A stretch of DNA of 64,000 nucleotides from an uncultured Acidobacteriota bacterium (GTDB lineage Bacteria; Acidobacteriota; Thermoanaerobaculia; Multivoradales; JAGPDF01), in contig CAVOXC010000006.1 of assembly GCA_963700315.1 (NCBI GenBank), positions 58,546 through 122,545 of the forward strand, written 5' to 3'. Positions 10,221 through 25,392 of the stretch are shown piece by piece. Under the pieces are notes generated by a model. That model did no database searches and was not told the DNA's origin. It saw nothing but the letters and a program-made list of their open reading frames with translations. The position numbers and the translations under genes are program-made. The stretch's first letter is position 1; every line of letters starts with the position of its first letter.

Positions 10221-10742
10221 ATGCCTCGTGCGCTGTTGGTCTATCCGGAGTTTCCGCCCTCGTACTGGGGGTTCCGGTATGCGCTCGAGCTGGTGGGGAA
10301 GCGCTCTTCGATGCCGCCGTTGGGTTTGCTCACCGTCGCCGCGATGTTTCCGTCCTCGTGGGAGCTGCGGTTGGTGGACCTCAACGTCCAGCCTCTGCTC
10401 GACGCCGACATCGAGTGGGCCGATCTGGTGCTCACGTCGACCATGGTCGTGCAGCAGCGCTCGTTGCGCGAGGTGCTCACGCGGTGTAACGCCTTGTGCA
10501 AGCCGGTCGCTGTCGGTGGGCCGCATCCGACCTCGTTCGCGTCCGAGATCGTCGGGGCGGATTACTTCCTGCTGGATGAGGTCGAGGAGACCTTCCCGCG
10601 CTTCCTCGCCGACTTCGAGGCGGGGCGGGCGGCGCGCGAGTACCGGCCCGAGTCGAAGCCGGCGGTGACCTCGACGCCGGTGCCGCGGTTCGACCTGCTC
10701 GATCTCTCGGTCTACGGGTCGATGGCGCTCACGCTACTCTGA
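10221..10742 (+). pseudogene. Truncated duplicate of the 5' end (B12-binding domain) of the radical SAM gene at 12305
   Basis: MPRALLVYPEFPPSYWGFRYALELVGKRSSMPPLGLLTVAAMFP... is colinear with 12305-12814 without indels. Homology ends at 10730, just before the CxxxCxxC motif, and a stop follows at 10742. Confidence 0.8.
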
Positions 10743-10816: not shown

Positions 10817-11632
10817 TCAGCCGGGGCGCATGACGGGTAGGGCCCCGCCGATCCTGCCGGCGTGGAATCGCAGCTCCCCGCGCGCGAGCGCGGCCTCGAG
10901 CGCGTCGGGCGGCTGGCGGCAGAGGTGGCCACCCGAGTCCAGGACGGCACGCCCTACCTCCTCGGCCGGCAGGTGCTCGACGATCTCGCGCGCAGCGGCG
11001 ATCAGGGCGTGCCAGCGGCGCGACAGGTCCGCGGCGTCCGGCCGCTTCCCCGCGAAGGCCAGCGGCTCGAGCTCGACCGCGCTGTATCTGCCGTTCTTCG
11101 CGGCGTGCTCCACGAGCAGCGAGGGACCGAAGCCGGGGTCCTTGCCGCACGCCGCCCAGGCGAGGTAGCCGAACGGCTGAAGCCGCTCGTGGCAGGAGAC
11201 GACGTCGACCCAGTCGCGCGGCTCCAGGCGCCCGACGAGCGCCAAGACCTTGTTGGTCGCCAAGTCGAACGGATGGAGCACGAGGCCGAGCTCGGAGTGC
11301 TCGACCAATGGGAAGAACCGGTAGCTCGAGTCGCGGCTCCATTCGACGCGCAACCTCTCCCCACCGGTCGAGACCTCCGCCTCGACGAAGCCGCGCCGCT
11401 CGTGCAGCAGCTGCAGCTCGAAGCCGGCCGCTTCGAGGCTTCGCCGATCCGCGGCGAAGGCCGCCGCGACGGCGCTTTCGGTGTCGTGGAAGAGGTCGAC
11501 GTCGCGGGAGACGCGCTCCGCGCCGAGTAGCTCGTTGAGCGCCAGGCCGCCGGCGAGGTAGCTCTCGCCAGCCGCGATGCGCCGCGCGGCTAGGAGGCGG
11601 CAGACGCGACGTTGGATCGCCGTGAGTGCCAT
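10817..11632 (-). CDS. AbiEii/DUF1814-like nucleotidyltransferase (putative toxin)
   Basis: 271 aa. N-terminal YLAGGLALNELLGAERVSRDVDLFHD resembles the GG.AL....R.S.D.D.F motif of AbiEii-type nucleotidyltransferases. Confidence 0.55.
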   Translation of the reverse strand: MALTAIQRRVCRLLAARRIAAGESYLAGGLALNELLGAERVSRDVDLFHDTESAVAAAFAADRRSLEAAGFELQLLHERRGFVEAEVSTGGERLRVEWSRDSSYRFFPLVEHSELGLVLHPFDLATNKVLALVGRLEPRDWVDVVSCHERLQPFGYLAWAACGKDPGFGPSLLVEHAAKNGRYSAVELEPLAFAGKRPDAADLSRRWHALIAAAREIVEHLPAEEVGRAVLDSGGHLCRQPPDALEAALARGELRFHAGRIGGALPVMRPG

Positions 11633-12304: not shown

Positions 12305-14596
12305 ATGCCACGCGCGCTTCTGGTCTATCCGGAGTTCCCACCCTCGTACTGGGGGTTTCGGTACGCGCTCGAGTTCGTGGGGAAGCGGTCGTCGATGCCG
12401 CCGTTGGGGTTGCTGACGGTCGCCGCGATGTTTCCGTCCTCGTGGGAGCTGCGGTTGGTGGACCTCAACGTCCAGCCTCTGCTCGACGCCGACATCGAGT
12501 GGGCCGATCTGGTGCTCACGTCGACCATGGTCGTGCAGCAGCGCTCGTTGCGCGAGGTGCTCGCGCGGTGTAACGCCTTGTGCAAGCCGGTCGCAGTCGG
12601 TGGGCCGCATCCGACCTCGTTCGCGTCCGAGATCGTCGGGGCGGATTACTTCCTGCTGGATGAGGTCGAGGAGACCTTCCCGCGCTTCCTCGCCGACTTC
12701 GAGGCGGGGCGGGCGGCGCGCGAGTACCGGCCCGAGTCGAAGCCGGCGGTGACCTCGACGCCGGTGCCGCGCTACGACCTGCTCGATCTCTCGGCCTACG
12801 GGTCGATGGCGCTCCAGTTCTCGCGCGGGTGCCCCTTCGACTGCGAGTTCTGCGACATCACCAAGCTGTTCGGGCGGGTGCCGCGGACCAAGAGCAACGA
12901 GCAGATCCTGACCGAGCTCGAAGCGCTCCATGCGCTCGGCTGGCGCGGGTCGCTCTTCCTCGTCGACGACAACTTCATCGGCAACAAGAAGGAGGCGCTG
13001 CGGCTGCTGCCGGCGGTCGCCGAGTGGCAGCGCGAGCGCGGCTACCCCTTCGACCTCTACACCGAGGCGAGCGTCAACCTGGCCAAGCTCGAGCCGCTGC
13101 TGGACGCCATGGTCGCGGCCGGCTTCTCGATGGTCTTTCTCGGCATCGAGAGCCCGAACCCGGAAGCCCTGCGCAAGACCAACAAGCTCCAGAACACCGC
13201 GAAGGACGACCGCGACTTCCTGCTCCATGCGGTCACCGCGATCCAGGAGAAGGGGATCGAGGTCACCGGCGGCTTCATCTTGGGGCTCGACGGCGACGGT
13301 GCCGAGGTGTTCGACGCCCAGGTCGAGTTCATCCAGCGCGCCGGGATCCCGATCGCGATGGTGGGCCTGCTGACCGCGCTCAAGGGGACGAACCTCTACA
13401 CCCGGCTCGAGCGCGAAGGGCGTCTCCTCTCCGAATCGACCGGCAACAACGTCGAGATCGCGCTCAACTTCGTGCCCGAGCTCGACCGCGACCTCTTGAT
13501 CGACGGCTATCGCGGAGTCCTCTCGGCGCTCTACGGACCCGACCTGCGCGCCTACTTCGCGCGCTGCAAGACGCTGCTGGCGCGACTCGGCAAACGACCG
13601 CGCGCCCGGCGGGCGCCTTCGCGCGCCGAGCTCCTGGCCGGGTTCCACTCCCTGCGCCTGCAGCTCTTCTCGCCGCAGGGCCCGGCCTACGCCGCGTTCC
13701 TCGCGCACACGCTGTTGACCCGGCCTTCGCGCATCGGCGAGGCGATCCGCATGGCCGTCAAGGGGTGGCACTTCCAGCGCTTCACCGCGCAGACGCTCGC
13801 CTCGCATGCCTATCGCGAAGCGGCGCTCGAGGAGTACGGCAGGGTCGAGGGGTTGCTCGAGCGCGCCGTGGCGGCGCACGACCGACTACGGCGCACGGTG
13901 GAACGACAAGTGGCGATCACGATCCGGCGGCTGCGGCGGCGCTACCGGCGGCTGCGGCCGGAGTTCCGGCAGGGCTTGCTGCCCGACCGCGCGGGGATCG
14001 AGAGCGCTCTTCGGGAGCTTGTCAGCGAAGTCGCCGGCCATGAGCTCGTTCGCCGTTGGACCCCACGCTTCAGGACCGCATTCTCGACCGAGACCTGGCG
14101 CAACGCGCTGGAAGCGGCGGGCTACCAGCCCGCCGATCGTCCGCTTGCCGGCGGCGCTCCGCCGACGGTGGCGATGGCGCCGATGGTCGAGCACGCGCGC
14201 TTGCGCCGTTCGCTCGAGCAGTTCTTCCGCGACCTCGGCATGCGGGTGGTGACGACGGGCGAGCAGCTCGCCCATCTCGGCCAGGAGGGTCTCGAGCGGA
14301 TCCACGCCCTCGCCGAAGCGCCCGAGCGGGTGAAGAGCTACCTCCTGGCCGTCGCCGAGCGGGTCGACACCCTGGTCGTCCCGGGCGCCGAGGGGTTGGG
14401 CGAGCTCGGCGGCAAGGTGCAGCTCCTCGCCGCCAAAGCAGCCGACCGCGCCGCGGCGCTGCCGCGCCTCGTCTGCGTCCGCCTCGAAGGGAGCCGCCGC
14501 GAAGTGCGCGCCGGCCTGATCGAGCTCGGCGTCGCCCTCACCGGCGACGCCGCCCGCGCCGAAGCCGCCTCGGAGCGGGCGCTGGCGTTGATCTGA
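12305..14596 (+). CDS. B12-binding-domain radical SAM protein with long C-terminal extension
   Basis: Start taken at MPRALLVY, supported by the duplicate at 10221. SRGCPFDCEFCDI (CxxxCxxC), FLVDDNF, FLGIESPNPE. A DUF4070-like region (...IRMAVKGWHFQRF) is followed by about 200 further residues of unknown type. Confidence 0.85.
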   Translation: MPRALLVYPEFPPSYWGFRYALEFVGKRSSMPPLGLLTVAAMFPSSWELRLVDLNVQPLLDADIEWADLVLTSTMVVQQRSLREVLARCNALCKPVAVGGPHPTSFASEIVGADYFLLDEVEETFPRFLADFEAGRAAREYRPESKPAVTSTPVPRYDLLDLSAYGSMALQFSRGCPFDCEFCDITKLFGRVPRTKSNEQILTELEALHALGWRGSLFLVDDNFIGNKKEALRLLPAVAEWQRERGYPFDLYTEASVNLAKLEPLLDAMVAAGFSMVFLGIESPNPEALRKTNKLQNTAKDDRDFLLHAVTAIQEKGIEVTGGFILGLDGDGAEVFDAQVEFIQRAGIPIAMVGLLTALKGTNLYTRLEREGRLLSESTGNNVEIALNFVPELDRDLLIDGYRGVLSALYGPDLRAYFARCKTLLARLGKRPRARRAPSRAELLAGFHSLRLQLFSPQGPAYAAFLAHTLLTRPSRIGEAIRMAVKGWHFQRFTAQTLASHAYREAALEEYGRVEGLLERAVAAHDRLRRTVERQVAITIRRLRRRYRRLRPEFRQGLLPDRAGIESALRELVSEVAGHELVRRWTPRFRTAFSTETWRNALEAAGYQPADRPLAGGAPPTVAMAPMVEHARLRRSLEQFFRDLGMRVVTTGEQLAHLGQEGLERIHALAEAPERVKSYLLAVAERVDTLVVPGAEGLGELGGKVQLLAAKAADRAAALPRLVCVRLEGSRREVRAGLIELGVALTGDAARAEAASERALALI

Positions 14597-15361: not shown

Positions 15362-15750
15362 TCGAGTACCTTTCGCTCGAGCAGGTGCTGGTGCTCCACG
15401 ACTTTCAGATCCGGCGCTACGGAGGCGCCCGTGGACTGAGGGACCGAGGCGCGCTCGAAGCCTCGGTCGCACGGCCGCGAGCGACGTTCGGAGGCGAGGA
15501 CCTCTACCCCGACCTCGCAGCCAAGGCGGCTGCGCTACTCCACTCTCTCTCAGCGAACCATCCGTTCGTGGACGGCAACAAGAGGGTCGCCGCCCATGCC
15601 GCCCTGCTCTTTTTGGAGGGGAACGGGTTCGAGCTCGAGTCGACTCCGTCCGCGCTCACCGCGCAGGTCTTGGCAGTCGCCCGCGGCGAGGTCGAGGCGG
15701 CGGCGCTGGCGATCTGGCTGCGGCAGCGGCTGCGCGTGCTCGAGCCCTGA
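15358..15750 (+). CDS. doc: Doc (death-on-curing) Fic-family toxin
   Basis: HPFVDGNKRVA Fic/Doc motif; 130 aa; GTG start. Confidence 0.85.
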   Translation: MIEYLSLEQVLVLHDFQIRRYGGARGLRDRGALEASVARPRATFGGEDLYPDLAAKAAALLHSLSANHPFVDGNKRVAAHAALLFLEGNGFELESTPSALTAQVLAVARGEVEAAALAIWLRQRLRVLEP

Positions 15751-16129
15751 GGCTCTCGTCCGACCGGGCCAGGCTGACGCATCGAAAGGAGCTCTCGGTT
15801 CAAGCAATCGCTGAAAGGGCGTTCGCGCCAGCTGGCTGGCCGCCTCGTGCCCCTCGAAAGAGCCGGTGAGCGAACGGTCCGGGCAAGCGTCGCATAGCAT
15901 CCCGACGAGCCACCGGCTCCTTCAATGGTCACTCTTCGCATGGAGAGAGGCAGCAGAACGTGGGTCACGGCGCGCCTGCTGGAAATGCCGAATCGGCGAT
16001 CTCGCGACCCGGTCCGCGGAGCGCCATCCGGAGGGCGACCGCCCCGCCGCGCGCGGCCGCCCTGATACGCTCTTGTCGACCCACCTTCGACGCCACGGCG
16101 CAGTCCAACCCAACCAAGGAGGGAGCGCC

Positions 16130-17380
16130 ATGAATCAGCGGTCCGCGTCGTACTTCTGCAGTCTCTTTCTGGTGCTGTCGTTCCCGGCCACGATGGCCGG
16201 ACAGGAGGACGCCTCGTTCGCCTCCTTCCAGTTCAATCGTTCGCTTCCCGGAGCTCGAAGTCTCGCGATGGGCGGAGCGTTCGTCGCGCTGGCCGACGAC
16301 GCCACCGCCGCCTACTCCAACCCGGCCGGCCTCACCCTGATCGAGCGCCCGGAGATCTCCGTCGAGGGGCGCAACTGGAGCACGGGCTCCGTCTACACCA
16401 ACACCGGAGTCGCACGGCCGGCGGCGCCCTTCGGCGACTTCACGTTCGGTGAGACGAGCGACGACGTCACCGGCCTCTCTTTCGTCTCCTACGTGTTCGC
16501 CCGGCAGGGCTCGCCGTGGGCCCTGGCACTCTACCGCCACGAGGTGGTGAATTACCAGTCGAGCTTCCGCAGTGACGGCGTCATCAAGAATCGTGATGGC
16601 GAGCTATTCGGGCCGTACGAGTTCTTGACCGATCTCGGCATTGAGAACTACGGCGCGTCCGCATCCTGGCGGGTCAGCGACGTTCTTCGGCTCGGCTTGG
16701 GCATCTCCTGGTTCACGTTCGACTTGAACTCCGTCCAGGACATTTTCAGCGACCCGCCCAACGACGACCAGCTCGTGACGACCGCGACGAAGAGGGGTGG
16801 CGACGAAAACTCCGCCCTCAACATTGGCCTGCTCTGGCAGATCGGGACTGACTGGTCGCTCGGCGCCGCCTACCGGCAGGGACCGACCTTCAAATTCCAA
16901 GAGACCTTCCCCGGCGTGTATGACGTGGCAAGCAGGCTCGCGGTGCCCGATCAGGCGGCCGTCGGGCTCGCCTTCCAGCCCAACGACCGACTGACGCTGC
17001 TACTTGAGTGGGACTGGGTGGAGTACTCGGCGCTGCTCGAGGGGAACCGGCTGGGGCAGCCGCCGGAGGGGAGATTCCTGCTCGATGACGCCAACGAGCT
17101 GCGGCTGGGAGCCGAGTATCTCTTCCTGTTGTCGAAAGGAAACTCGATCGCGCTGATGGCCGGCGCCTGGCACGACCCCAACCACGCGATCGTCTTCGAA
17201 GGCGAATGCGACGCCTCCTCCACCTGCTTCCGCAAGGCTTACTTCCAGGACGCCGGCTCCGACGAGATGCACTACTCGGGAGGCGTCGGGGTGAAGCTCG
17301 ACCGCGTCGAGATCGACCTCGGCGCCGACCTATCGGACCGTATCGACACGATCTCGCTGTCGACGGTCGTGAGATTCTGA
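16130..17380 (+). CDS. Outer-membrane beta-barrel protein (FadL/OMPP1-like)
   Basis: AAGGAGGGA precedes the ATG at 16130. Signal peptide MNQRSASYFCSLFLVLSFPATMAGQ; GARSLAMGGAFVALADDATAAYSNPAGL; terminal ...LSTVVRF (C-terminal Phe). Confidence 0.6.
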   Translation: MNQRSASYFCSLFLVLSFPATMAGQEDASFASFQFNRSLPGARSLAMGGAFVALADDATAAYSNPAGLTLIERPEISVEGRNWSTGSVYTNTGVARPAAPFGDFTFGETSDDVTGLSFVSYVFARQGSPWALALYRHEVVNYQSSFRSDGVIKNRDGELFGPYEFLTDLGIENYGASASWRVSDVLRLGLGISWFTFDLNSVQDIFSDPPNDDQLVTTATKRGGDENSALNIGLLWQIGTDWSLGAAYRQGPTFKFQETFPGVYDVASRLAVPDQAAVGLAFQPNDRLTLLLEWDWVEYSALLEGNRLGQPPEGRFLLDDANELRLGAEYLFLLSKGNSIALMAGAWHDPNHAIVFEGECDASSTCFRKAYFQDAGSDEMHYSGGVGVKLDRVEIDLGADLSDRIDTISLSTVVRF

Positions 17381-20300
17381 CGACCGCCGTCCGGCTGGAA
17401 CGCCTCCGGTACGCCGGACGCGTCGCGGCCGCGCTCGCCCTCGCCGCCACGCTCGCCGCCGCGCCGATACGGTCGGAGGAGGGGTCTCACTACAGCCGCG
17501 CTTATCGCGCAGGGCGACTCGCCCACCTGGCCGGCAATCACCGCACCGCCGTGCTACTCCTCCTAGAAGCGATCGAGCGAAACGCCGTCGAGGGGGAGCC
17601 CTGGGTGCGCCTCTACGGCCGCAACCGCGCCCCCTACCTTCCCTACTTCTACCTCGGTGCGTCGCTCTTCGAGCTCGGGGAGTACGCTGCCGCCATTGCT
17701 GCGCTCGACGAGTCCGAGCGGCAGGGCGCGGTCCTGGACGCCGAGGAGGCCGTGCCGTTTCGCTCCTATCGCGGACGGCTCCGTTCGGAGATCCTCCCCG
17801 CCGTGCGCGAGGAGGCCCAGTTCGAGCTCGATGCAGCGCGACGCCTGCTGGCGGGGATCGACCACACCATCGCGAGCGGCCAGCCGGAAGATACCGGCGC
17901 CACCGAACGAGAACGTGCCCGGGAACAGCTCGCGAACGCGTCCGCCGCGCTCACGCGGCCGGAGGTGCAGGACGACCTGGCATCGCTCCAGGCGGCGCGC
18001 GAGACCTTGGCAAAGATCGATCTCGAGCTGACTTCGATCCTGGAGCTCGCCGAGCGCGGGCGCGTCGAGCTCGCGGTCGCGGAGCGCGATGTTCGACTCC
18101 GCGAGCTCCTGGCTACTCCGCACCCGCGCTGCGACCGTGACCACCTCGACGCGCTCGCTCGCCTCCTCGCCCAGGAACTGCCCCTCGCGCCCGAGCTCGA
18201 CGCGGAGGCCCACCTCGCGATGGCCAGAGGAAAGCTCGAATGCGAGGCCTTTGGCGAGGCCCGGCGGGAGCTCGACGCCATGACCCTGCGGCTGGCGCCG
18301 CCCGAGCTCCCTGCCGACCGAGCGACGAATCTCTTGGCCAGAGTAGGCCCGCTCTCCGAGGAGATCGCGCGGAGGGAGCTCGAGTCGAGCTGGCGCGCGT
18401 GGTTCGAGCGTGCCCAGGCGTCGGCCTGCGATCGGGAAGCGCTCGAGCGGCTCGAGCGCTCGGCCGAGGCGCTGCTCGCTCGGTTTCCGCAGAGGCTCGA
18501 CCGCTCGACGATCTCGCCTCGATTCGAGCTTGCGCGTCGGCTGTTCGCATGTGGCGACCTCGACGGCGCGGCGCTCCGGCTCGAGGCCGCCGCAGCGACC
18601 CAGGAGCGGAACGAGGTCGCGCGAGCGGCTCTCGCCGGCGAGATTCGCTCCGCGCTTGCGGCGCGAGCGCAGCAGGCACGACTCACCGAAGCCGCACGTC
18701 GGCTGCACGACGCGCTCCAGCGGCTCGCGTCAGCCCAGGAGTGCTCACCGGCCGACCGGACGAAGGCGACGGGCCTGCGCCAGGAGCTCGTCACGAGCGG
18801 GCTCGCCGGGGCCGAGGACCTCGCGCGGCTCGACCTCGCGCTCGCCCGGGCCGCACTCGGCTGCGGCGAGCTCGAGGAGGCGACGCGCCATCTCGTCGGC
18901 CTCTCGCGGCAACCCGCCGTCGCACCCGCCGAGAGCGCCGAGGTCGCGCGGCAGATCGCCGAGCGGCGCGCGGCCGAGGCAAGAGCCCTGGCCGAACGGG
19001 AGGCCGCAGGACGCTACGTCGCCGCGCTCGGCCTGGTCTCCGGCGGCGCCTGCTCACTCGAGGCCATCGCCCTCCTCGAGGACCTCGCCCGCGACGGCTG
19101 GACGGGACGAGCGGACGACCTGCCGCAACGTGTTCTCGTCGCGCTCGCTACCGCGCGGCTCACCTGCGGCGAGCTCGACCGCGCCGCGGAGACTCTCTCC
19201 AGCTCGGAGCTCGCCCTCTCCGCCCTGGAGGAAGAGATCGCGCAGATCCAGGCCCGATTGCAAGCCCGGCGGCTCGAAGCGCAAAGCGCGGCGCGCCGCG
19301 AACGTTTTGAGGCCTCGTTGCGAGAGCTCCTGGTGGGCGTGGCCGGCGAGGCCTGCCATCCGGAGGGCGTGCGGGCGCTCCAGCGAACGCTCGCCGAGGC
19401 GCCCGCGGAGCTCGACCCGATCGACGTCGCGACGGCGGCGGCTCAGGCCGAGTTGGCGCGCGCGCAGCTCGCCTGCGGCGACCTCGACGCCGCAGAGGCT
19501 TCGCTCGTCGCCGCCCGCGCCCACCATACCGGCAGGGCCGGCCCCCTCGCCGAGCTCGGCGCGCGGGTGGCCCGAGAGCGCGAGCGGCGACTCGAACGGG
19601 AGCACCGGGCGCGGCTGCTCGAGCGCTACGTCGACGCGACGACCTCGGTCGACCTCGGCCTGTGCGAGCGAGCGGCGGTCGAGACGCTCGAGGAGGTCGC
19701 CGACCTGCCGCCGGACGACCCACTTCCCGACTGGATTGCCGAGGCCTCGGGTCTGGAGCGGCGGCCGGAGCTCGATCTCGCGCGGGCGCAGGCGAGCTGC
19801 GGCGATGTCGCCGCGACTCGACGCGCGCTCGCGCGACTCGAGGTCCAAGGCGCCAGCGCGCCGGCCGAGGCGCGACGAGAGGTCGAGCGCCGGCTGGTTG
19901 ATCGCGCAGCGCACCGGCTCTACAGCGGCCGTTACGCCCTCCTCGTCGGCGCCAGCGACTACGCGCGAAATCGCGGCGGATGGTGGAATCTCGCCGGCGT
20001 GAGCGACGACCTCGAGACGATTCGATGCGCTCTCGTCGGCTCTGGCTTCGACGCTATCCGCACCGTCGCGCCGCCAGTGACGGCGAGCCGGATCCGCGCC
20101 GCCGTCGAGTCCTTCATCGCCGAGTTCGGCGGAGAGCGCGACGGTGAAGAACATCTGCTGCTCTTCTATTTCGCCGGACACGGCGAGACCTTGACCGGAC
20201 GCCTGGCGCGCGACGACGGCAGCTACGAGTTCAAGTCGGGCTACTTCGTGCCGGAGGACGCGCCGCGCCCCGACGGCACGGAGGCGATCCGCGATCGGTT

Positions 20301-20946
20301 CCTCGAACTCGCCGTCGGCATGGACGAGGTCGACCGGTGGGCTCGCTCGATCCGGGCGAAGCACGCCTTCTTCTTGTTCGACACCTGCTTCTCCGGTACG
20401 GTCTTCCGGGCGCTGGCGCGCGGGCGTGGGCTGCTGCGCGTCGAAGGCACCGAAGGGTCGGACTCGATTCTTCCCCCGCTCGTCCTTGCGCGCGCGGCCA
20501 AGCCGGTCCGGCTCTTCGCCACCGCCGGCGCGGAGGACCAGGTCGTGCCCGACGAGAGCGTCTTCCGCCGGCTCCTGGTCGCCGCGCTCGAAGGACGGCG
20601 CAACGACGCGGACTTCACCCGCGACGGCTTTCTCATGGGGCGCGAGATCTGCCTCTTCTTGGAGGACCAGGTCGCGATCGAGACCGACAGCCGGCAGACT
20701 CCGCAGTGCGGCACGATGCCCCCTCCCTTCCACGAAGGGGACGTGATCTTCGAGCTCCGCGGACTCGAGCGGGGCGTCGAGGAGGCGATGCGCGACCGGC
20801 TCCGAAAGGAGGTCGAGGTCTGGAGAGGGGCGCGCACCAAGCCGATCGGCCTCGACCTCTACCTGGAGCGCTACCCCGTGGGACGCTACGCGGGACTCGC
20901 GCGCTTCCTTGCAGACGACGACGCCGCGATTGCGGCCTCGAGGTGA
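17206..20946 (+). CDS. Exported Cys-repeat / caspase-like (peptidase C14) protein; true start unresolved
   Basis: C-terminal YALLVGASDY...LLLFYFAGHGE (His)...AFFLFDTCFSG (Cys) caspase dyad. Six ~100-aa helical repeats lie upstream. Signal-like RVAAALALAATLAAAPIRSEE is encoded just after the OMP stop, but there is no ATG/GTG/TTG in frame between 17206 and about 17548. Confidence 0.75.
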   Translation: MRRLLHLLPQGLLPGRRLRRDALLGRRRGEARPRRDRPRRRPIGPYRHDLAVDGREILTTAVRLERLRYAGRVAAALALAATLAAAPIRSEEGSHYSRAYRAGRLAHLAGNHRTAVLLLLEAIERNAVEGEPWVRLYGRNRAPYLPYFYLGASLFELGEYAAAIAALDESERQGAVLDAEEAVPFRSYRGRLRSEILPAVREEAQFELDAARRLLAGIDHTIASGQPEDTGATERERAREQLANASAALTRPEVQDDLASLQAARETLAKIDLELTSILELAERGRVELAVAERDVRLRELLATPHPRCDRDHLDALARLLAQELPLAPELDAEAHLAMARGKLECEAFGEARRELDAMTLRLAPPELPADRATNLLARVGPLSEEIARRELESSWRAWFERAQASACDREALERLERSAEALLARFPQRLDRSTISPRFELARRLFACGDLDGAALRLEAAAATQERNEVARAALAGEIRSALAARAQQARLTEAARRLHDALQRLASAQECSPADRTKATGLRQELVTSGLAGAEDLARLDLALARAALGCGELEEATRHLVGLSRQPAVAPAESAEVARQIAERRAAEARALAEREAAGRYVAALGLVSGGACSLEAIALLEDLARDGWTGRADDLPQRVLVALATARLTCGELDRAAETLSSSELALSALEEEIAQIQARLQARRLEAQSAARRERFEASLRELLVGVAGEACHPEGVRALQRTLAEAPAELDPIDVATAAAQAELARAQLACGDLDAAEASLVAARAHHTGRAGPLAELGARVARERERRLEREHRARLLERYVDATTSVDLGLCERAAVETLEEVADLPPDDPLPDWIAEASGLERRPELDLARAQASCGDVAATRRALARLEVQGASAPAEARREVERRLVDRAAHRLYSGRYALLVGASDYARNRGGWWNLAGVSDDLETIRCALVGSGFDAIRTVAPPVTASRIRAAVESFIAEFGGERDGEEHLLLFYFAGHGETLTGRLARDDGSYEFKSGYFVPEDAPRPDGTEAIRDRFLELAVGMDEVDRWARSIRAKHAFFLFDTCFSGTVFRALARGRGLLRVEGTEGSDSILPPLVLARAAKPVRLFATAGAEDQVVPDESVFRRLLVAALEGRRNDADFTRDGFLMGREICLFLEDQVAIETDSRQTPQCGTMPPPFHEGDVIFELRGLERGVEEAMRDRLRKEVEVWRGARTKPIGLDLYLERYPVGRYAGLARFLADDDAAIAASR

Positions 20947-20958
20947 CGCCGCGCGCCG

Positions 20959-21729
20959 CTAACGGGGAACGTGCTGGAAGTGGAGCCGGTAGATCGCCAC
21001 GCCCCCTGCGTCGAGCTCCACCACCACGCCCTCGCGGCCGGCGACGCGAATCAGGCCGCGATTGCCCAGGCCGAAGCCGCCAGGAACCGAGGGCGCGACC
21101 GTGCCGGTGAGCGCGGGTTCCGCTCGGGCTCGTCGGTGGGACGGCGCAATCCCGCCTTTCGCCGGCACGTCGCGCGGGGCCTCGGTAGCCGCGGGCGCCA
21201 CGGCCGCGGGTTCCGAAACCGGCTTCTCGAGCTCGGCCCCGAGCGCCGCCCCTCCAGGTGAGGCCCGCACCTCGCGCAGGCGCGCCGCAACGAGCGCATC
21301 GACCTCGGCGATCGGACCCGCCGAGGCTACGAAGTAGAGATTCTCCTCCCCGACCGCGTCGTCGAGCACGAACCAGGAACCGGTCGCCGGCAATCGGAGT
21401 GAGTAGCCCGCCTGCAGAATCAGATCGCCCTCCTCAGGATGGAGCACGGCCGCCGCGCCGTCCGCAAAGAACTGCAACAGATAGAGGTAGACGTCGCGGT
21501 CGGCTGCGGCGAGCACATGGATCCGCTCGCCGCTCCTGAGGCGATCTCCGGCGGCGACGACTTCGAGGTGGCCGTTGCGCTCGACCTCGACGCGCACGGT
21601 GAGCTGCGCCGGCGCGACGGGGGGAAGCGCCGGAGGCTCGGCGCCAGCCGCCAGGGCGGCCGACAGGGTCGCCGCCAGGAAAGCCCACGGCGCGTACCGA
21701 TGAAGCGCCGATCGTCGCTCCAGATTCAT
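20959..21729 (-). CDS. Secreted DUF4384-like protein
   Basis: ATG at 21729. Signal YAPWAFLAATLSAALAAGA. GERIHVLAAADRDVYLYLLQFFADGAAAVLHPEEGDLILQAGYSLRLP...ENLYFVAS fits the DUF4384 pattern. ATGA overlap with the kinase stop. Confidence 0.6.
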   Translation of the reverse strand: MNLERRSALHRYAPWAFLAATLSAALAAGAEPPALPPVAPAQLTVRVEVERNGHLEVVAAGDRLRSGERIHVLAAADRDVYLYLLQFFADGAAAVLHPEEGDLILQAGYSLRLPATGSWFVLDDAVGEENLYFVASAGPIAEVDALVAARLREVRASPGGAALGAELEKPVSEPAAVAPAATEAPRDVPAKGGIAPSHRRARAEPALTGTVAPSVPGGFGLGNRGLIRVAGREGVVVELDAGGVAIYRLHFQHVPR

Positions 21730-23750
21730 TCGGCCCTCTCCTCCGCGCCGCGCGCGCAGCGGAAGCCGATCTGCGTGCTCGGCTCCTCCGCCGCGCGCCG
21801 ACCGCGACCCGCAGCGCGCGTCATCTCCGCCAATCCCTCCCAGTTGCCGCCGCGCACGACACGCGGGCCCTGCCCCTCCACGAACGGGTCCACGCAGGGC
21901 GGCGAGCACTCGGGATAGGGAGCCGCGAAGGCGTCAGCGACCCACTCCGACACATTGCCTCCGAGGTGCAGCACACCCTCCGGAGAGGCATCCCCGGTCG
22001 CCGCAAGAACGCCCACCGGCATCGCGTCCAGGTGGGAGCAGGGGCCACCCTTTCCCCTGCCGAAGACGGCCCAGGCGCAGTCGGGCCGCTCCGCGCCCCA
22101 GGGAAAGGCGCGCCCCTCGACGCCGCGTGCCGCCCGTTCCCATTCGGTCTCGGTCGGCAAGCGGCGCCCGCGTGCGCGACAGTACGCCGCCGCCCCGAAC
22201 CAAGTCACCTGAACGGCCGGTAGGTCACCCCAGCCGTCGCGGGCGCGGAACGCTCCGTCGAGTTGTTCGACGCCGCTCCAGCCGCGATGCAGGTCGACGA
22301 GAACCCGTCCCCCAGAAAGCACGCGCTCCTCGACGACCTCGGCCGCCGGCACCGCAGCGAGCCATGCGGCGAGCTCACCATTGGAGACCTCGGCGCGGTC
22401 CAGGTAGAACGCACCGACCCGCACTGCGTGCCGGGGTCGCTCGCGCTCGTAGAGCTCGCGGCGGCACTCCGTTCCCGCGAGCTCCTGGCACCAGGAGAAC
22501 GCCTGCTCGATCTCGTCGAGGCTGCTTCCGATCGAGAGGTCCGCGGTCTCGAGGGAGACCATGCCGTCCGGAGGCGCCGACGCGCCGCCGTCGGCGCGCT
22601 CGCCCGCCGCTTGCGGGGACCACGCTCCGTGCCAGAGCCAGAGCGCCGAGCCGAGAGCGACCACCAAGGCGACCGCCCAGCCGGAGGTTTTCCACCGGCC
22701 CCCGAGCCACGATTCCAGAGTGCCGTACGTTCCCCGCCTCGGTTCCGAGCCCCCCTCCTCGACCGCCAATTCGGAGGGCGCCATGGCGGTCGCGTCGGCC
22801 GCGTCGAGGCGAGCGGTGGGCTCGACGTCGCCTTTGGCGCCAGCGACCGTTTCGGTGCGGTCGAGCTCGCACAACATTTCGCTCGCGTCCCCGAAGCGCT
22901 CTTCGGGACTCCTCGCAAGCGCACGGGCGATCAGGCGGTCGAGCCAATCGGGAGTCGCGGGAGCTCGCTCGCGCGGGTGGCGCTCGACGTCGCCGCGGAC
23001 GATCCGGGCAATCACTTCGGTGGTGGAGCCACCACGCGCTGGTGGGGTGCCGGTGAGCAGGTAGTAGAGCGTGGCACCCAGCGAGTAGACATCCGAGCGC
23101 GCGTCGACCGAGCGGAAATCGAGAAGCTGCTCCGCGCTCGCGAAGTTGACCGTGCCGATGAACTCGCCCGATTTCGTCAAGTCGTTCGGGCGGTCGAGCG
23201 CCTTGGCGAGGCCAAAGTCGAGGATCTTGAGTCGCGCCGGCGTTCCGGATCCGACGAGGAAGAGATTCTCCGGCTTGATGTCGCGATGCACGACGCTCTG
23301 CGCGTGCGCCGCGCCGAGCGCTTCCAGGGACTGCCGCGCAATCGCCAGGACCTCGGGGATTCCGAGCCGATCTCCCGAGCGATGCAGCCGCTCCTGAACG
23401 GTCTCGCCCCGCAGGAGCTCCATGACCAGGAAGGGATCGCCGTCCGGATTGGCGCCGAAGTCGGTCACGGCAACGATGCCGGGGTGCTCGAGGCTGGCCG
23501 CGACTCTCGCCTCGCGCACGAAGCGCTCCGCGACGCCCGGCTGACGCGAATGGGGGGCGAGCAGGAGCTTGAGAGCGAACGAGCGCTCGAGCTCGAGGTG
23601 GACGGCGTGGAATACCGCGCCGAAGCCTCCGACACCGAGAAGCTGGTCCAGGCGGTACCTTCCCGCCACGATCGATCCCACTCGACGGGCCGGACAGTCC
23701 GGCGAGCCCAGCGAGTGATCGAGGCCGCAGCGGCCGCACTGCGCGTCCAT
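21726..23750 (-). CDS. Ser/Thr protein kinase - TM - FGE-sulfatase (SUMF1-like) domain fusion
   Basis: ATG at 23750. GVGGFGAVF, ALKLL, HRDIKPENLFL, DFGLAK. One hydrophobic segment, WAVALVVALGSALWLW. Then RLPTETEWERAARG...FPWG...GNVSEWVAD...RVVRGGNWE...IGFRCA. Confidence 0.85.
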   Translation of the reverse strand: MDAQCGRCGLDHSLGSPDCPARRVGSIVAGRYRLDQLLGVGGFGAVFHAVHLELERSFALKLLLAPHSRQPGVAERFVREARVAASLEHPGIVAVTDFGANPDGDPFLVMELLRGETVQERLHRSGDRLGIPEVLAIARQSLEALGAAHAQSVVHRDIKPENLFLVGSGTPARLKILDFGLAKALDRPNDLTKSGEFIGTVNFASAEQLLDFRSVDARSDVYSLGATLYYLLTGTPPARGGSTTEVIARIVRGDVERHPRERAPATPDWLDRLIARALARSPEERFGDASEMLCELDRTETVAGAKGDVEPTARLDAADATAMAPSELAVEEGGSEPRRGTYGTLESWLGGRWKTSGWAVALVVALGSALWLWHGAWSPQAAGERADGGASAPPDGMVSLETADLSIGSSLDEIEQAFSWCQELAGTECRRELYERERPRHAVRVGAFYLDRAEVSNGELAAWLAAVPAAEVVEERVLSGGRVLVDLHRGWSGVEQLDGAFRARDGWGDLPAVQVTWFGAAAYCRARGRRLPTETEWERAARGVEGRAFPWGAERPDCAWAVFGRGKGGPCSHLDAMPVGVLAATGDASPEGVLHLGGNVSEWVADAFAAPYPECSPPCVDPFVEGQGPRVVRGGNWEGLAEMTRAAGRGRRAAEEPSTQIGFRCARGAEERAE

Positions 23751-23886
23751 GATGGTCCATCTTAAAGCCGACCGACCGCCCTCAGCCGCCCGGGACTCGG
23801 AGGAGTAAACTGTCGGCAGGTCTAGGCCGGTCCGGGCGCTGTCCGGAATGGGTCCGGCGCCAGGCGCCTCCCGGCAGGGAGTGCTC

Positions 23887-24732
23887 ATGAGGAATGTATC
23901 CGCACGCGTCGCGCTGGCGCTGTTCGGCCTCCTACTTCTACCTTCCGCGTCTGCCGCTGCCACCTGGCACCGCCCCAACGAGAGCTTGACCGGGGCCGAG
24001 ACGGGGGACTTCAAGTTCCAGTCGCTCGCCTACTTCGTCGCAGCGGGCGGCCACTACGTCGTCACCAGCGCCCAGTACTACGACGGATTCCTGGTCGTCT
24101 ACGGCGGCGGATTCGATCCAGCGGCGCCGCTCGCGCTCGCGCTCGCGGCGAACGACGATGGTCCTGGAGGGCCGGGGACATCGCGGCTCGAGCTCGACCT
24201 CGTGCCGGGGGTGATCTACCACTTCGTCATGACCACGAAGAACCCGATCGACATCGACGTCTTCGAGCTCAACACCTTCTCGCTCGAGATCAGCGGGCCG
24301 GGCGAGCCGACGCTCGCCGCCTGCTTCTACGGCGACGAGGTTCCGTTCGCCGACCTCGTGCCGCTCCAGGACCTGGGCCTCGGCGACGTCGAGGGATCGC
24401 GCGGCCGCTTCTGCGTCACGGCGCGCTGGTGGGATTTCCAGGGCGGCTCGGGCTACGGGCGGCCGATCGGCTTCCGCTCGGCCGACTCGGGGATCTTCGA
24501 GTTCTTCGGGACGTCGAACTGGGAGCTCACGGTCAAGGTGCTCGACGGCTGCGGGGTCAACGAGCACTACTGGGTCTTCCTGACCGGCGCGACCAACCTC
24601 CACTACGAGGTGACGATCTACGACCTCGCCGCGGGCGAGGAGCGCAGCTACCAGAACAGCGCCGGCGTCCCGAGCCCCGCGTTCGTCGACACCGAGGCGT
24701 TCGAGACCTGCGACGCGTACTGGCCGAACTGA
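23887..24732 (+). CDS. Secreted hypothetical protein
   Basis: MRNVSARVALALFGLLLLPSASA signal. C-terminal RFCVTARWWDFQGGSGYG...SGIFEFFGTSNWELTVKVLDGCGVNEHYWVFLTGATNLHYEVTIYD region of unknown family. Confidence 0.5.
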   Translation: MRNVSARVALALFGLLLLPSASAAATWHRPNESLTGAETGDFKFQSLAYFVAAGGHYVVTSAQYYDGFLVVYGGGFDPAAPLALALAANDDGPGGPGTSRLELDLVPGVIYHFVMTTKNPIDIDVFELNTFSLEISGPGEPTLAACFYGDEVPFADLVPLQDLGLGDVEGSRGRFCVTARWWDFQGGSGYGRPIGFRSADSGIFEFFGTSNWELTVKVLDGCGVNEHYWVFLTGATNLHYEVTIYDLAAGEERSYQNSAGVPSPAFVDTEAFETCDAYWPN

Positions 24733-24854
24733 GGAAGGACGAGGAAGATCGGGGGTCGAAGTCGCGGCGCCGCGCCAGCCGCTATCGTGGCGCTGCGTCC
24801 TGCCTGCCGAGGCCTGCTCGATTCGCCGCCCGCCTGCGCCTCGTTGGTCTCCAA

Positions 24855-25060
24855 TGTCGTCCTGAGCGCAGCGAAGGACCTTGCGTGATCGGCGGGAAGC
24901 CACCGTCCTCGCTTCTTCAGGCGAGGGCGCAAGATCCTCCACTTCGTTCAGGATGACATCGGGGAGAGGGTTCAAGATGACATGGGAGAGGGGGTTCGAG
25001 ATGACCTCGGAGAGAAGCTTCGAGGTGACATCGGGGGCGTTCGGGATGACATCGAGAATG
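24855..25060. repeat. Composite palindromic repeat, copy 3
   Basis: Core at 24856-24957, identical in layout to copies 1 and 2, followed by four or five ~24-nt right-hand tandem units (ATCGGGGAGAGGGTTCAAGATGAC...). Confidence 0.85.
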
Positions 25061-25282
25061 CTCCGTCGGCCCCGCCGGTAGCCTCGGCGCGGCCTGCCGC
25101 GTCGGCATCGGCGCTGCGCCGTTCGACGGGCATCTCCGGCGACCTGGTCTCCCCCTAACTGCCCGCCTCCGCCGCCGTCGGACCCCGCGCCAGAGGAGCC
25201 TTCGCCCCTGGCCCAGAGCCAGCGACCGGCCTCCGCTCGACGTATCGGTCTCGAGTCCTTCGCGACCCTTCGGCTGTGGCCC

Positions 25283-25379
25283 GCTCACCGCGCAGGTCCT
25301 GGCCGTCGCCCGCGGCGAGGTCGAGGCCGCCGCGCTCGCGATCTGGCTGCGGCAGCGGCTGCGTGCGCTCGAGCCCTGA
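25283..25379 (+). pseudogene. Orphan 3' remnant of a doc paralogue
   Basis: [31 protein letters not shown] is nearly identical, at nucleotide level too, to the end of doc (15655-15750). There is no upstream Fic motif. Confidence 0.7.
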
Positions 25380-25392
25380 GACGACTCTCGAT

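Follow-up and report, generated by a model that had tools for sequence, protein, structure and literature searches.

A four-gene cassette from Thermoanaerobaculia as a probable cell-envelope sensing module

The 64,000-nt stretch of Acidobacteriota DNA analysed here (the window) contains a cassette of two convergent gene pairs that most likely make up an undescribed module for sensing at the cell envelope, a function we infer. One pair joins a FadL-family outer-membrane barrel (OMP) to a large caspase-like protease, and the other joins a DUF4384 protein to a Ser/Thr kinase with a lectin-like ectodomain (Table 1). The four domain assignments of a first-pass annotation (Toluene_X/FadL, Peptidase_C14, DUF4384, and Pkinase plus FGE-sulfatase) were all recovered in Pfam, and its placement of every non-kinase module in the periplasm or envelope agrees with their export signals or their position beyond a single transmembrane (TM) segment.

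Table 1. Features of the cassette and its flanks (window coordinates).
Feature	Positions	Strand	Remarks
Left copy of 99-nt direct repeat	15653..15751	+	3' end of intact doc toxin gene
FadL/TodX-family outer-membrane beta-barrel (OMP)	16130..17380	+	416 aa; Pfam Toluene_X
Exported orthocaspase-like protein	17395..20946	+	1183 aa if start is CTG 17395
Signal-peptide-coding stretch LERLRYAGRVAAALALAATLAAAPIR	17395..17472	+	aligns with P0002/P0003 signal peptides
TPR-like head domain, EGEPWVRLYGRNRAPYLPYFYLG...	17482..17799	+	residues ~30-135; conserved
Six helical repeats	18058..19899	+	~103 aa each; one conserved Cys pair each
Peptidase C14 (caspase/metacaspase-like) domain	19921..20754	+	His929, Cys998; Pfam 2e-8
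C-terminal helical segment	20767..20943	+	W...YLxxYPxGxFAGLA motif; helices 1125-1182 (AF2)
Gap between convergent stop codons	20947..20958	.	12 nt
Exported DUF4384 protein	20959..21729	-	256 aa; Pfam 5e-9
Hanks-type Ser/Thr kinase, single TM segment, FGE-type lectin-like ectodomain	21726..23750	-	674 aa
FGE-sulfatase-fold (C-type-lectin-like) ectodomain	21750..22463	-	both catalytic cysteines absent
Single hydrophobic segment GWAVALVVALGSALWLWHGAW	22626..22697	-	basic residues precede it in orthologues
Kinase catalytic domain	22851..23678	-	K61, HRD, N162, DFG intact
N-terminal Cys3-His motif	23694..23738	-	CxxCGxDHSxGSxDCP; invariant
Right copy of 99-nt direct repeat	25282..25380	+	93% identical; orphan doc 3' end

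Genes, junctions and domains

Because the OMP-caspase and DUF4384-kinase pairs are convergent, they constitute two transcription units rather than one operon. The caspase and DUF4384 stop codons (20944-20946 and 20959-20961) leave exactly the gap first reported, in which no terminator-like hairpin was found; loci L002-L004 instead show a 16-nt overlap of these genes. On the minus strand the DUF4384 start overlaps the kinase stop as ATGA, the basis on which translational coupling had been proposed. The cluster had been drawn from 16130 to 24732, a span that holds for the four genes but whose end also takes in a fifth open reading frame (23887-24732) with no conservation in the other cassette loci. 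MazE/Doc, AbiEii, PIN and IS110 genes and repeat families make up the setting, as expected from the toxin-antitoxin- and repeat-rich surroundings described earlier. The two copies of the 99-nt repeat bracket the cassette, and no doc reading frame lies upstream of the right copy.

The OMP matches Toluene_X at 4e-13 (49 bits; cut-off 29.7). Its sequence opens with a signal peptide, carries the hatch motif GARSLAMGGAFVALADDATAAYSNPAGL in its N-terminal part and a conserved pair of Cys residues close to the C-terminus, and finishes on the terminal Phe of the ...VVRF ending noted before. By sequence similarity it resembles channels for hydrophobic substrates rather than any known protein-anchoring barrel, its best PDB profile matches being TbuX (1.5e-5), CymD and FadL.

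Where does the caspase-like protein begin? Its frame is open over 17206-20946(+), and in the database the gene (P0001, 1131 aa) is called from GTG 17551, without a signal peptide. A start-codon survey found no ATG, GTG or TTG between the OMP stop and that codon, and only a start at CTG 17395 or CTG 17377 would include a signal peptide; CTG 17395 lines up with the GTG at which the homologues of L001/L005/L007 begin. The signal-like N-terminus earlier ascribed to this protein of more than 1100 residues is therefore present from either CTG, with a hydrophobic segment at residues 7-25, but absent from GTG 17551; a start there would leave the protein in the cytoplasm and cut into the conserved head. 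Of 43 relatives, 33 have a signal-like N-terminus. Given its non-canonical start, the copy in the window could be poorly expressed.

In a five-sequence alignment the protein shows 48-52% identity, and its AF2 model has a mean pLDDT of 83. The head is the most widely recurring part of the N-terminal region (most of 113 protein clusters match query residues ~7-130), and all ten of the best head-matching clusters carry a C-terminal Peptidase_C14 domain. The six Cys-containing helical repeats of the first-pass annotation were found as such, with the motif C...LARAxLxCG[DE]L and Cys pairs at 246/283, 345/386, 450/490, 553/591, 654/694 and 757/802. Residues 1-840 contain no other Cys, the repeat Cys columns are invariant in the five-sequence alignment, and the region is all-helical in the AF2 model. 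The repeats are probably disulfide-stapled. Homologues carry three or six repeats, with repeats 3-5 missing in P0003-5.

The Peptidase_C14 match (2e-8) lies above the Pfam cut-off, and Foldseek aligns the domain with metacaspase-4 and caspase-7/-9 (probability 1.00, target TM 0.47-0.68). An intact His/Cys dyad had been proposed, and an alignment bears this out: His929 and Cys998, in FYFAGHG and FDTCFSG, are invariant in 30 relatives, showing at the sequence level that the catalytic residues are intact. An invariant RGRGL directly follows the catalytic Cys, in a low-confidence loop (residues 1008-1012, pLDDT < 50). The protease probably cleaves after basic residues, a predicted P1 specificity. 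Invariant residues also mark the C-terminal segment (W1143, Y1156, L1157, P1161, G1163, A1166-G1167), the motif of which recurs in P0019 and P0027.

The kinase protein matches Pkinase at 1e-41, FGE-sulfatase at 4e-39 and PknB at 2.7e-63. K61, HRD155-157, N162 and DFG178-180 are invariant in the orthologue alignment, in line with the earlier expectation of conserved catalytic residues, as are C5, C8, H12 and C19 in four orthologues, which possibly form a zinc knuckle. As had been predicted, the FGE-type domain lies beyond the sole hydrophobic segment, and the positive-inside rule suggests an N-in/C-out orientation. Opposite 'GGSYlchDSYCNRYR' of the S. coelicolor FGE the domain reads 'GGNW...EGLAEMTR', and because both catalytic cysteines are absent we regard it as a binding domain, not a sulfatase maturase. 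That it makes formylglycine from Cys or Ser in a sulfatase, a reading encouraged by the Pfam match and by a sulfatase-family gene in the window (54431), is thus effectively refuted. That gene lies 30 kb from the cassette, and its protein reads TLPSH and lacks a CxPxR motif, as first stated; the conclusion that classical maturation is unlikely holds, the cysteine loss being a stronger argument than the sulfatase motif originally invoked.

The DUF4384 protein comprises a signal peptide, a beta-sandwich (~40-156), a Pro/Ala-rich linker that is disordered (160-219) and, at the C-terminus, a conserved piece of three strands (GFGLxNRGLVRVAG...); AF2 pLDDT exceeds 90 both in the sandwich and in these strands. 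No solved structure matched it below E 1e-3, the nearest being the Wzt glycan-binding domain and RhoGDI. This partner is rare: a set of 5.8 billion proteins yields just 13 clusters of it. No cleavage motif is conserved in the linker across 13 sequences; a recurrent linker Arg has a Pro directly after it and is missing in 2 of the 13.

Conservation and separability of the gene pairs

The order OMP, caspase, convergent DUF4384 and kinase-FGE is found in L001-L005, L007-L010 and one JGI contig, so the co-occurrence on which the first-pass annotation had staked its reading extends to other genomes. It is kept in at least six diverged lineages, with proteins 42-75% identical, and the flanks of the other loci show no synteny with the window; with unrelated flanking genes, the four-gene linkage appears to be selected. 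All assignable lineages are Thermoanaerobaculia, and since the family is this narrow, part of the synteny could reflect shared ancestry.

The cassette nevertheless consists of two separable gene pairs rather than one indivisible four-gene system. In L006, kinase-FGE and DUF4384 stand on their own, with neither OMP nor caspase; in L018 and L032 the caspase directly follows a FadL-like OMP, and neither kinase nor DUF4384 was detected in their short tails. OMP identity is 57-75% in L001-L004 and 36-37% in L018/L032, and OMP-to-caspase gaps in the cassette loci measure 2-14 nt.

The caspase's closest relatives are exported, and many of them bear an FGE-type lectin domain in direct fusion; those at 35-41% identity are C14-FGE-sulfatase fusions. 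Caspase occurs with FGE in 25 of 80 metagenome loci, mostly in one open reading frame, and DUF4384 is the top Pfam family (9 matches) among 93 immediate neighbours of the caspase clade. L012 combines several C14-FGE genes with DUF4384, C14-DUF4384 and OmpA genes, and its C14-FGE fusion genes flank a diversity-generating retroelement.

A possible outside-in sensor and its alternatives

Which way would a signal run? We tentatively favour an outside-in sensor, in which the protease, the DUF4384 protein and the lectin ectodomain would converge on a single ligand in the periplasm, with the kinase reporting to the cytoplasm. The FadL-family barrel would be translated together with the large periplasmic orthocaspase-like protease, most likely positioning or anchoring it at the outer membrane; the barrel's role is the weakest part of the proposal. 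The TPR-like head and the helical repeats, three to six in number, may provide a scaffold or spacer. The exported DUF4384 beta-sandwich protein would partner the PknB-like kinase, whose non-catalytic periplasmic lectin domain could sense ligand binding or a cleavage product, reported inward by phosphorylation. Sister-clade caspase-FGE fusions and DUF4384 neighbours suggest that protease, DUF4384 and lectin domain share one periplasmic ligand or complex, and the fusion of caspase to lectin domain in relatives points to periplasm-to-kinase signalling, not kinase-to-protease control. Physical contacts, signalling direction, ligand and biological purpose are what we infer; our leading guess at the purpose is that the cassette monitors the envelope for invaders or damage.

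The first-pass annotation had proposed the reverse, a kinase-gated protease, which in its fullest form would execute defence or programmed death with the kinase timing the protease's firing. Toxin-antitoxin genes in the accessory region and the retroelement beside caspase-FGE relatives, suggestive of an arms race, fit this idea, as does the company that caspase-like proteases and FGE-type domains keep in predicted conflict systems (PMC7159879). However, the inner membrane separates the cytoplasmic kinase domain from the periplasmic protease, so phosphorylation cannot act directly on the protease, and the caspase-lectin fusions indicate the opposite flow. The cassette contains neither an NTPase core nor an effector-associated domain and fits no known defence model, and the FGE domain is conserved rather than diversified (its C-terminal region is near-invariant among orthologues), with neither a diversity-generating retroelement nor a template-repeat copy of the domain in the window. 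This kinase-gated defence reading appears quite improbable.

Two further alternatives loosen the tie between the pairs. Their adjacency could reflect co-regulation only, or they might be independent modules travelling together without cross-talk, the OMP-caspase pair processing or degrading envelope or extracellular proteins and the kinase-DUF4384 pair sensing an unrelated ligand. Convergent transcription and the occurrence of each pair alone favour independence, but the order persists amid unrelated flanks despite protein divergence, and the caspase clade, habitually FGE-fused and DUF4384-neighboured, links domains of both pairs across many lineages; we consider independence unlikely, if not strikingly so. 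In type IX secretion, the FadL-like PorV tethers the gingipain-like PorU, and the barrel might likewise tether its clan-CD protease for extracellular work (nutrient proteolysis, surface remodelling or cell-cell interaction), with the kinase pair regulating only transcriptionally. In every locus, even the distant L018/L032, the OMP gene is tightly coupled to that of the protease; PorV/PorQ are the OMP's best NCBIfam matches, the FGE domain matches PorK (PDB, 1.7e-14) and PorK/GldK (NCBIfam), and P0033 ends, by eye and with Pfam silent, in a fused-barrel-like beta-rich segment with terminal Phe. Yet the NCBIfam scores fall far below their cut-offs (PorV/PorQ, 37.7 against 90 bits; PorK/GldK, 65.9 against 350), the PDB profile matches of the OMP do not include PorV, no further component of type IX secretion was observed, and the 1183-aa protein has no evident route through the outer membrane, all of which makes surface tethering a doubtful prospect. 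The outside-in sensor remains our preferred reading.

Relation to known systems

The cassette matches none of the curated defence systems, PADLOC returns only generic kinase and caspase matches for it, and the searched literature contains no description of it. FGE-like, DUF4384 and caspase domains had been said to recur together in bacterial conflict systems; this stands for caspase and FGE, but DUF4384 has no mention in the main conflict-system paper (PMC7159879), and its caspase/protease link comes from other papers. In some Csx30 proteins, substrates of the caspase-like Csx29, DUF4384 is the C-terminal domain (10.1101/2022.08.17.504292). Published caspase/FGS conflict systems are defined by NTPase cores, which the cassette lacks. 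Its parts nonetheless have recognised counterparts: kinases with FGE-sulfatase or DUF4384 domains constitute an existing family (10.1101/2025.01.12.632604), and kinase-CLec and orthocaspase-CLec proteins are established ligand-sensing architectures (PMC7517822; PMC7159879).

Gene layout, conservation and genomic setting

In this window (G+C ~70%), Pfam matches above the curated cut-offs identify the four genes of the cassette, which are arranged as two facing pairs. The stop codons of the caspase and DUF4384 genes lie 12 nt apart, with no terminator-like hairpin in the convergent gap, and the stop of the kinase gene overlaps the start of the DUF4384 gene as ATGA. Every factual element of the first-pass annotation, from the genes and their domains to these two junctions and the six Cys pairs of the caspase protein, was recovered.

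Cassette genes and other features of the window
Feature	Position	Strand	Details
FadL/TodX-family outer-membrane protein (OMP)	16130-17380	+	416 aa; signal peptide, N-terminal hatch motif, terminal ...VVRF; Pfam
Large protein with C-terminal Peptidase_C14 domain (caspase protein)	17206-20946 (open frame)	+	Pfam
DUF4384 protein	20959-21729	-	256 aa; Pfam
Pkinase + FGE-sulfatase protein (kinase)	21726-23750	-	674 aa; Pfam
Cys3-His motif of the kinase	23694-23738	-	CxxCGxDHSxGSxDCP
Cys pair of the OMP family	~17260-17290	+	GEC-x5-6-CF, residues ~378-387
Signal-peptide ORF	23887-24732	+	281 aa
99-nt direct repeat, left and right	15653-15751; 25282-25380		93% identical
300-nt direct repeat	10221-10520; 12305-12604		94% identical
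AbiEii toxin gene	10817-11632		between the 300-nt copies
Intergenic repeat family	992-1338; 2128-2500; 24851-25056		23-nt tandem units (...GTCGTCCTGAGCGCACCGCC...) and conserved ~50-nt block
VWA-FHA protein	49832-51139	-	FHA 3e-13
TonB-dependent receptor gene	52190-54301
Sulfatase/phosphodiesterase-family protein	54431-56419	+	TLPSH at nucleophile position

Where does the caspase gene start? The OMP stop codon occupies 17378-17380, and no ATG, GTG or TTG occurs from there up to GTG 17551, where the public gene call P0001 (1131 aa) begins and thus yields a protein without a signal peptide. The stretch between codes for a good signal peptide that aligns with those of the homologues, and within it CTG 17395 aligns exactly, at the DNA level, with the GTG start codon of three other cassette loci (L001, L005 and L007). 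Two further loci, L003 (1827-1893) and L004 (1445-1616), also lack a canonical start ahead of the signal-peptide-coding sequence, giving three loci, with the window (17374-17551), in which the caspase gene has no ATG, GTG or TTG before this conserved sequence. At every locus, the TTC TGA that ends the OMP gene generates a CTG overlapping the stop. The missing canonical starts and this overlapping CTG together suggest non-canonical or termination-coupled initiation, and we infer that translation begins at CTG 17395 (or 17377), which ribosomes finishing the OMP gene would probably reach. A start at ATG 17206 is unlikely, because the frame would then share 175 nt with the conserved C-terminal part of the OMP gene.

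The four genes co-occur elsewhere: the same gene order and orientation are found on metagenome contigs L001-L004, a JGI contig, L005 (a GTDB representative annotated as a Thermoanaerobaculia MAG) and L007-L010 (further assemblies of one Thermoanaerobaculia genus). Identity to the window proteins is 57-75% for the OMP, 48-52% for the caspase protein, 42-58% for the DUF4384 protein and 52-63% for the kinase; the OMP-caspase gap is 2-14 nt across the loci where the start is clear, and the convergent 3' ends at other loci are 13 nt apart or overlap by 16 nt. The flanks vary, with Kelch-repeat, PAS/response-regulator and GGDEF-EAL genes in L007 and a cold-shock gene in L003, and none of the other loci's flanking genes has a syntenic counterpart beside the window cassette. 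Because the flanks are unrelated across loci, selection appears to hold the cassette together, at least within Thermoanaerobaculia. The cassette is uncommon. Clusters of the DUF4384 partner number 13 in 5.8 billion proteins; for the 816-residue N-terminal region of the caspase protein, searched exhaustively in 1.84 billion representatives, only 4 clusters fall below 1e-30.

The cluster was also said to sit in a toxin-antitoxin- and repeat-rich accessory region, a description that matches what is observed here: MazE/Doc, a B12-radical-SAM gene, the AbiEii toxin gene, a methyltransferase and an IS110 transposase lie upstream, and the trp operon lies downstream. An intact doc toxin gene has the left copy of the 99-nt direct repeat as its 3' end, and the right copy, 9.6 kb downstream, is an orphan; between them they bracket the cassette, the unconserved signal-peptide ORF and a repeat element in the manner of attachment-site remnants, with no integrase between the copies. 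This setting fits an accessory, rearrangement-prone region. The 300-nt direct repeat corresponds to the 5' part of the B12-binding radical-SAM gene and encloses the AbiEii gene, a gene-end duplication round an insert in the same pattern as at doc. One copy of the intergenic repeat family lies just within the right boundary of the cassette region.

The signal-peptide ORF, transcribed divergently from the kinase gene, has strong coding-type codon bias (GC3 0.91), a clear signal peptide and no match in Pfam, NCBIfam or PADLOC. It was rejected as a cassette component, since it is not conserved beside the cassette elsewhere; a gene near the L007 cassette that also encodes 281 aa bears no meaningful resemblance to it (19% identity, E 0.003 in a single comparison), and an 81-aa gene of L007 is unrelated to the 81-aa MazE of the window.

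Domains and topology of the four proteins

The caspase protein scores 34.4 bits against the 21.4-bit cut-off of PF00656 (Peptidase family C14), and its dyad, His929 and Cys998 (counted from CTG 17395), is invariant among 30 aligned relatives. In an AlphaFold (AF2) model of mean pLDDT 83, residues 845-1120 adopt a caspase fold that Foldseek matches to metacaspase-4 and caspase-7/-9 with probability 1.00 and target TM-scores of 0.47-0.68. D872 is aligned with the S1-pocket Asp of the metacaspase-9 'GCIND' motif, and D996 lies two residues ahead of the catalytic Cys, which we take to match the metacaspase 'DxCxSG' motif; these two positions suggest a likely basic (Arg/Lys) P1 specificity. An invariant RGRGL in the low-confidence, disordered loop right after Cys998 is a candidate autoprocessing site.

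Exactly twelve Cys occur in the first 840 residues; they come as six pairs that recur every ~103 residues, each embedded in a C...LARAxLxCG[DE]L motif. Self-BLAST of the region gave no matches, and the repeats are visible only through the periodic Cys pairs and this motif. Repeat number varies, from six in window-type and L001-type proteins to three in the database proteins P0003-P0005, which have lost repeats 3-5. The model is all-helical here, each repeat comprising a long helix and then short helices, with one Cys of the pair opening the first short helix and the other closing the second, a modelled placement compatible with a disulfide clamp. Foldseek searches with the helical region returned only generic TPR/helical-repeat proteins, among them the anti-sigma factor DdvA and LbcA, with global TM-scores that were very low, and the best 10 relatives of the region all have the same TPR-like head and a C-terminal C14 domain. 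The full-length query retrieved 5 clusters only, its Ala-rich sequence saturating the word index, and relatives were therefore gathered by the caspase domain alone and by the exhaustive N-terminal search.

The DUF4384 protein scores 36.5 bits against the cut-off of 27 for PF14326, which is annotated in 13 of 13 members of its family. Its model (pLDDT 72) comprises a confident beta-sandwich (~40-156), a disordered Pro/Ala-rich linker (160-219) and a confident three-strand C-terminal element; Foldseek found no solved structure below E 1e-3, the nearest being the Wzt glycan-binding domain and RhoGDI (probability up to 0.99, low TM-scores). A recurrent Arg in the linker was discarded as a cleavage site, as Pro follows it and it is missing in 2 of the 13 sequences. 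The OMP (PF03349, 49 bits against 29.7) has an NPAGL hatch motif and a terminal Phe, and its PDB profile search gave TbuX (1.5e-5) and also FadL. Near the C-terminus, the OMP family carries a conserved Cys pair that is missing from the more distant barrels of contigs L018 and L032.

The kinase domain (PF00069, 143 bits) is PknB-like (PknB 2.7e-63), with K61, H155-R-D157, N162 and D178-F-G180 invariant in the alignment. At the extreme N-terminus, before the catalytic domain, lies an invariant Cys3-His motif that may be a zinc knuckle. The ectodomain scores 135 bits with PF03781 (FGE-sulfatase) and matches the S. coelicolor FGE at 2.4e-20, and it is missing the catalytic, copper-binding Cys pair: in the alignment with 6muj and 2q17, the first Cys belongs to an insertion that the query lacks and Ala stands opposite the second, and among orthologues the region is invariant and Cys-free. 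The loss of both Cys indicates a binding domain, not a formylglycine-generating enzyme, and makes the label "SUMF1/EgtB/PvdO family nonheme iron enzyme" misleading on such proteins. It also agrees with the earlier judgement that sulfatase maturation is unlikely, as does the absence of a C/S-x-P-x-R substrate: the only sulfatase-family gene of the window encodes TLPSH, with no CxPxR-type motif in a plausible frame. That gene adjoins the TonB-dependent receptor gene.

The C-terminus of this lectin-like domain is near-invariant between orthologues. Its candidacy as the target of a diversity-generating retroelement was rejected, since 21729-21900 is repeated nowhere in the window; no RVT_1 match occurs among the window ORFs scanned. 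The VWA-FHA protein, encoded ~26 kb from the kinase, and a second FHA match among the window ORFs are possible phospho-Thr readers, with no evident tie to the cassette.

Topology was assigned by reasoning from hydrophobic segments, alignments and the positive-inside rule. The OMP, caspase and DUF4384 proteins each begin with a signal-like segment, and a strict test found an N-terminal hydrophobic segment in 33 of 43 caspase-clade relatives, several of the others being narrow misses or truncated gene calls. Across all five close homologues, six of the Cys columns are invariant, and C694, C757 and C802 show little or no variation in 12 homologues at greater distance, a conservation of the Cys pairs that fits an oxidising compartment. 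A single hydrophobic segment, which follows basic residues in the orthologues, separates the two domains of the kinase; by the positive-inside rule, this would place the kinase domain inside and the FGE-fold domain in the periplasm. The kinase-gated protease proposed in the first-pass annotation is at odds with this topology.

Two separable pairs and a possible outside-in logic

The cassette consists of two pairs, OMP-caspase and kinase-DUF4384. In L006 (1-4728), the most divergent DUF4384 relative directly follows a kinase-FGE gene, with an unknown 245-aa gene and a second Hanks kinase next and neither OMP nor caspase in the locus. In L018 and L032, the gene for a FadL-like OMP (36-37% identity, Pfam Toluene_X) ends 3-4 nt ahead of a caspase gene that belongs to the wider clade, and no kinase or DUF4384 gene was detected in the remaining 1.3-1.5 kb of contig. 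That the two pairs act independently is a real alternative to any joint function, to be weighed against how often their domains meet elsewhere. The nearest relatives outside the family, found by caspase-domain search at 35-41% identity, are exported C14 proteins, many with a C-terminal FGE-sulfatase fusion, and other relatives carry Lcl_C, another lectin-like domain, or PEGA. A scan with a broader alignment, run after over-specific patterns had matched nothing, yielded 80 metagenome loci of the wider caspase clade; by our own profiles, an FGE domain lies beside the caspase in 25 of these, mostly in the same ORF. A Pfam census of 93 immediately adjacent genes puts DUF4384 first (9), then C14 (8), TPR and FGE-sulfatase (4), with reverse transcriptase at 2. 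L012 (1-17142) holds at least four exported Peptidase_C14-FGE genes round a bAvd and reverse-transcriptase pair, along with a DUF4384 gene, a C14-DUF4384 fusion and three OmpA-family genes, and looks like a set of retroelement-diversified periplasmic caspase-lectins. By domain-fusion logic, these fusions and neighbours suggest that caspase, FGE-fold and DUF4384 domains cooperate in the envelope; in the window cassette, the FGE-fold domain appears to have moved onto the kinase instead of the protease. One caspase relative, P0033 (596 aa), ends in ...LGVKF; its residues ~440-596 combine a coiled region rich in Lys and Glu with a beta-rich C-terminal segment that resembles a fused outer-membrane barrel and has no Pfam match.

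We see in the cassette a new variant, split and located in the envelope, of the known theme of caspase or kinase with FGE-lectin and DUF4384. An outside-in logic is most likely: a ligand or a cleavage event in the periplasm would involve the protease and the DUF4384 protein, the lectin-like ectodomain would sense it, and the kinase would turn the signal into phosphorylation. The biological role may be one of surveillance, defence or remodelling. A surface-anchored protease under kinase control is the other real alternative. Taken further, outside-in signalling could make the cassette a bacterial counterpart of immunity in which an extracellular protease feeds a receptor kinase. A periplasmic orthocaspase would be tethered at the outer membrane, its reach set by a stalk of three or six disulfide-stapled helical repeats, and would detect or cleave an envelope component that is invading or damaged; the DUF4384 protein would present the resulting product or be its source, and the lectin-like ectodomain of the Hanks kinase would bind this product, whereupon the kinase would turn on a cytoplasmic response. 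We think it improbable that all of these steps hold jointly. If they did, this would be the first case of proteolysis-coupled Ser/Thr-kinase signalling over a Gram-negative envelope.

Bacterial caspase homologues are discussed mostly as cytoplasmic death or defence effectors. They are numerous, and to our knowledge a substrate or trigger is known for almost none. The cassette and its wider clade point to an entire caspase branch that is exported and habitually coupled to lectin-like FGE-fold domains and DUF4384, a coupling that the cassette wires to a transmembrane Ser/Thr kinase and an outer-membrane barrel. With its compact four genes, one could approach together what DUF4384 does, which ligand a non-catalytic FGE domain binds, and both the input and the output of a bacterial caspase.

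Comparison with known systems

PADLOC 2.0 gave only generic models, for the kinase (PD-T4-6, MAD6) and the caspase, and no match for the OMP and DUF4384 proteins; NCBIfam matches to the cassette proteins were likewise generic or sub-threshold, and none of the seven papers with a mention of DUF4384 in the literature searched describes the four-gene cassette. In type IX secretion, the FadL-like barrel PorV tethers the clan-CD (gingipain-like) protease PorU, PorQ is likewise a FadL-like barrel, and PorK/GldK is an FGE-fold lipoprotein, so that the same three folds are joined in an envelope machine. The OMP matches PorV/PorQ weakly, and the FGE-fold domain PorK/GldK (NCBIfam) and PorK structures, but all matches fall far under the family cut-offs and no other type IX genes occur in the window. 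The OMP was rejected as PorV/PorQ (37.7 bits against 90 in NCBIfam, with residues 33-84 alone matching and PDB profiles favouring TbuX/FadL), as was the FGE-fold domain as PorK/GldK (65.9 bits against 350 for the NCBIfam equivalog). We know of no type IX secretion in Acidobacteriota, and we treat the resemblance as an analogy only. In the LbcA-CtpA system of Pseudomonas aeruginosa, a TPR lipoprotein scaffolds a periplasmic protease. It shares the idea of a TPR scaffold steering such a protease, and the helical N-terminal region of the caspase model resembles LbcA (E 2.3e-4); however, global TM-scores reach only 0.07-0.13, CtpA, a serine protease, is a polypeptide of its own, and the sequences are unrelated.

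The conflict systems of Kaur et al. combine caspase and FGS domains round STAND, vWA-MoxR or GAP1 NTPase cores with effector-associated domains, and are cytoplasmic (PMC7159879). The cassette shares their vocabulary of caspase, FGS/CLec, Ser/Thr kinase and TPR domains, but its four genes, and whatever is conserved at any of the loci, include none of these cores or effector-associated domains, and all of the cassette except the kinase domain is exported. In the type III-E CRISPR 'Craspase', the caspase-like Csx29 cleaves Csx30, and DUF4384, which is often fused to proteases, is the C-terminal domain of some Csx30 (10.1101/2022.08.17.504292). Both systems genetically pair a caspase-like protease with a two-domain, DUF4384-containing protein with a flexible linker, and by analogy we hypothesize that the caspase cleaves the cassette DUF4384 protein; Craspase, by contrast, is cytoplasmic and RNA-guided with a CHAT-type protease, and the cassette has no Cas genes.

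A bacterial kinase atlas lists a Hanks-type Ser/Thr kinase family whose C-terminal domain is FGE-sulfatase or DUF4384, 'Proteo1' (10.1101/2025.01.12.632604). As described, such PknB-like receptor kinases share with ours a PknB-like catalytic domain, one transmembrane segment and an extracytoplasmic FGE-fold sensor domain, whereas the cassette DUF4384 is a separate, translationally coupled protein rather than a fusion, and the cassette kinase has the N-terminal Cys3-His motif and is genetically locked to the OMP-caspase pair. Metacaspase-FGE fusions were counted in 2012 (PMC3501461), and in cyanobacteria, kinase-CLec and orthocaspase-CLec proteins, interpreted as signalling proteins that sense ligands, head the multidomain targets of retroelements in frequency (PMC7517822). 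These caspase fusions belong to the same caspase subclade, at 35-41% identity with the same motifs round His and Cys, and likewise pair a C14 protease with a non-catalytic FGE-fold binding domain, often with DUF4384 as a partner. Unlike them, the cassette carries its lectin domain on a separate membrane kinase, conserves that domain and has no retroelement, and its protease has a TPR-like head with Cys-pair helical repeats and is coupled to a FadL-like barrel; and whereas the cyanobacterial examples are mostly predicted to be cytosolic (PMC7517822), the caspase clade of the cassette is exported.
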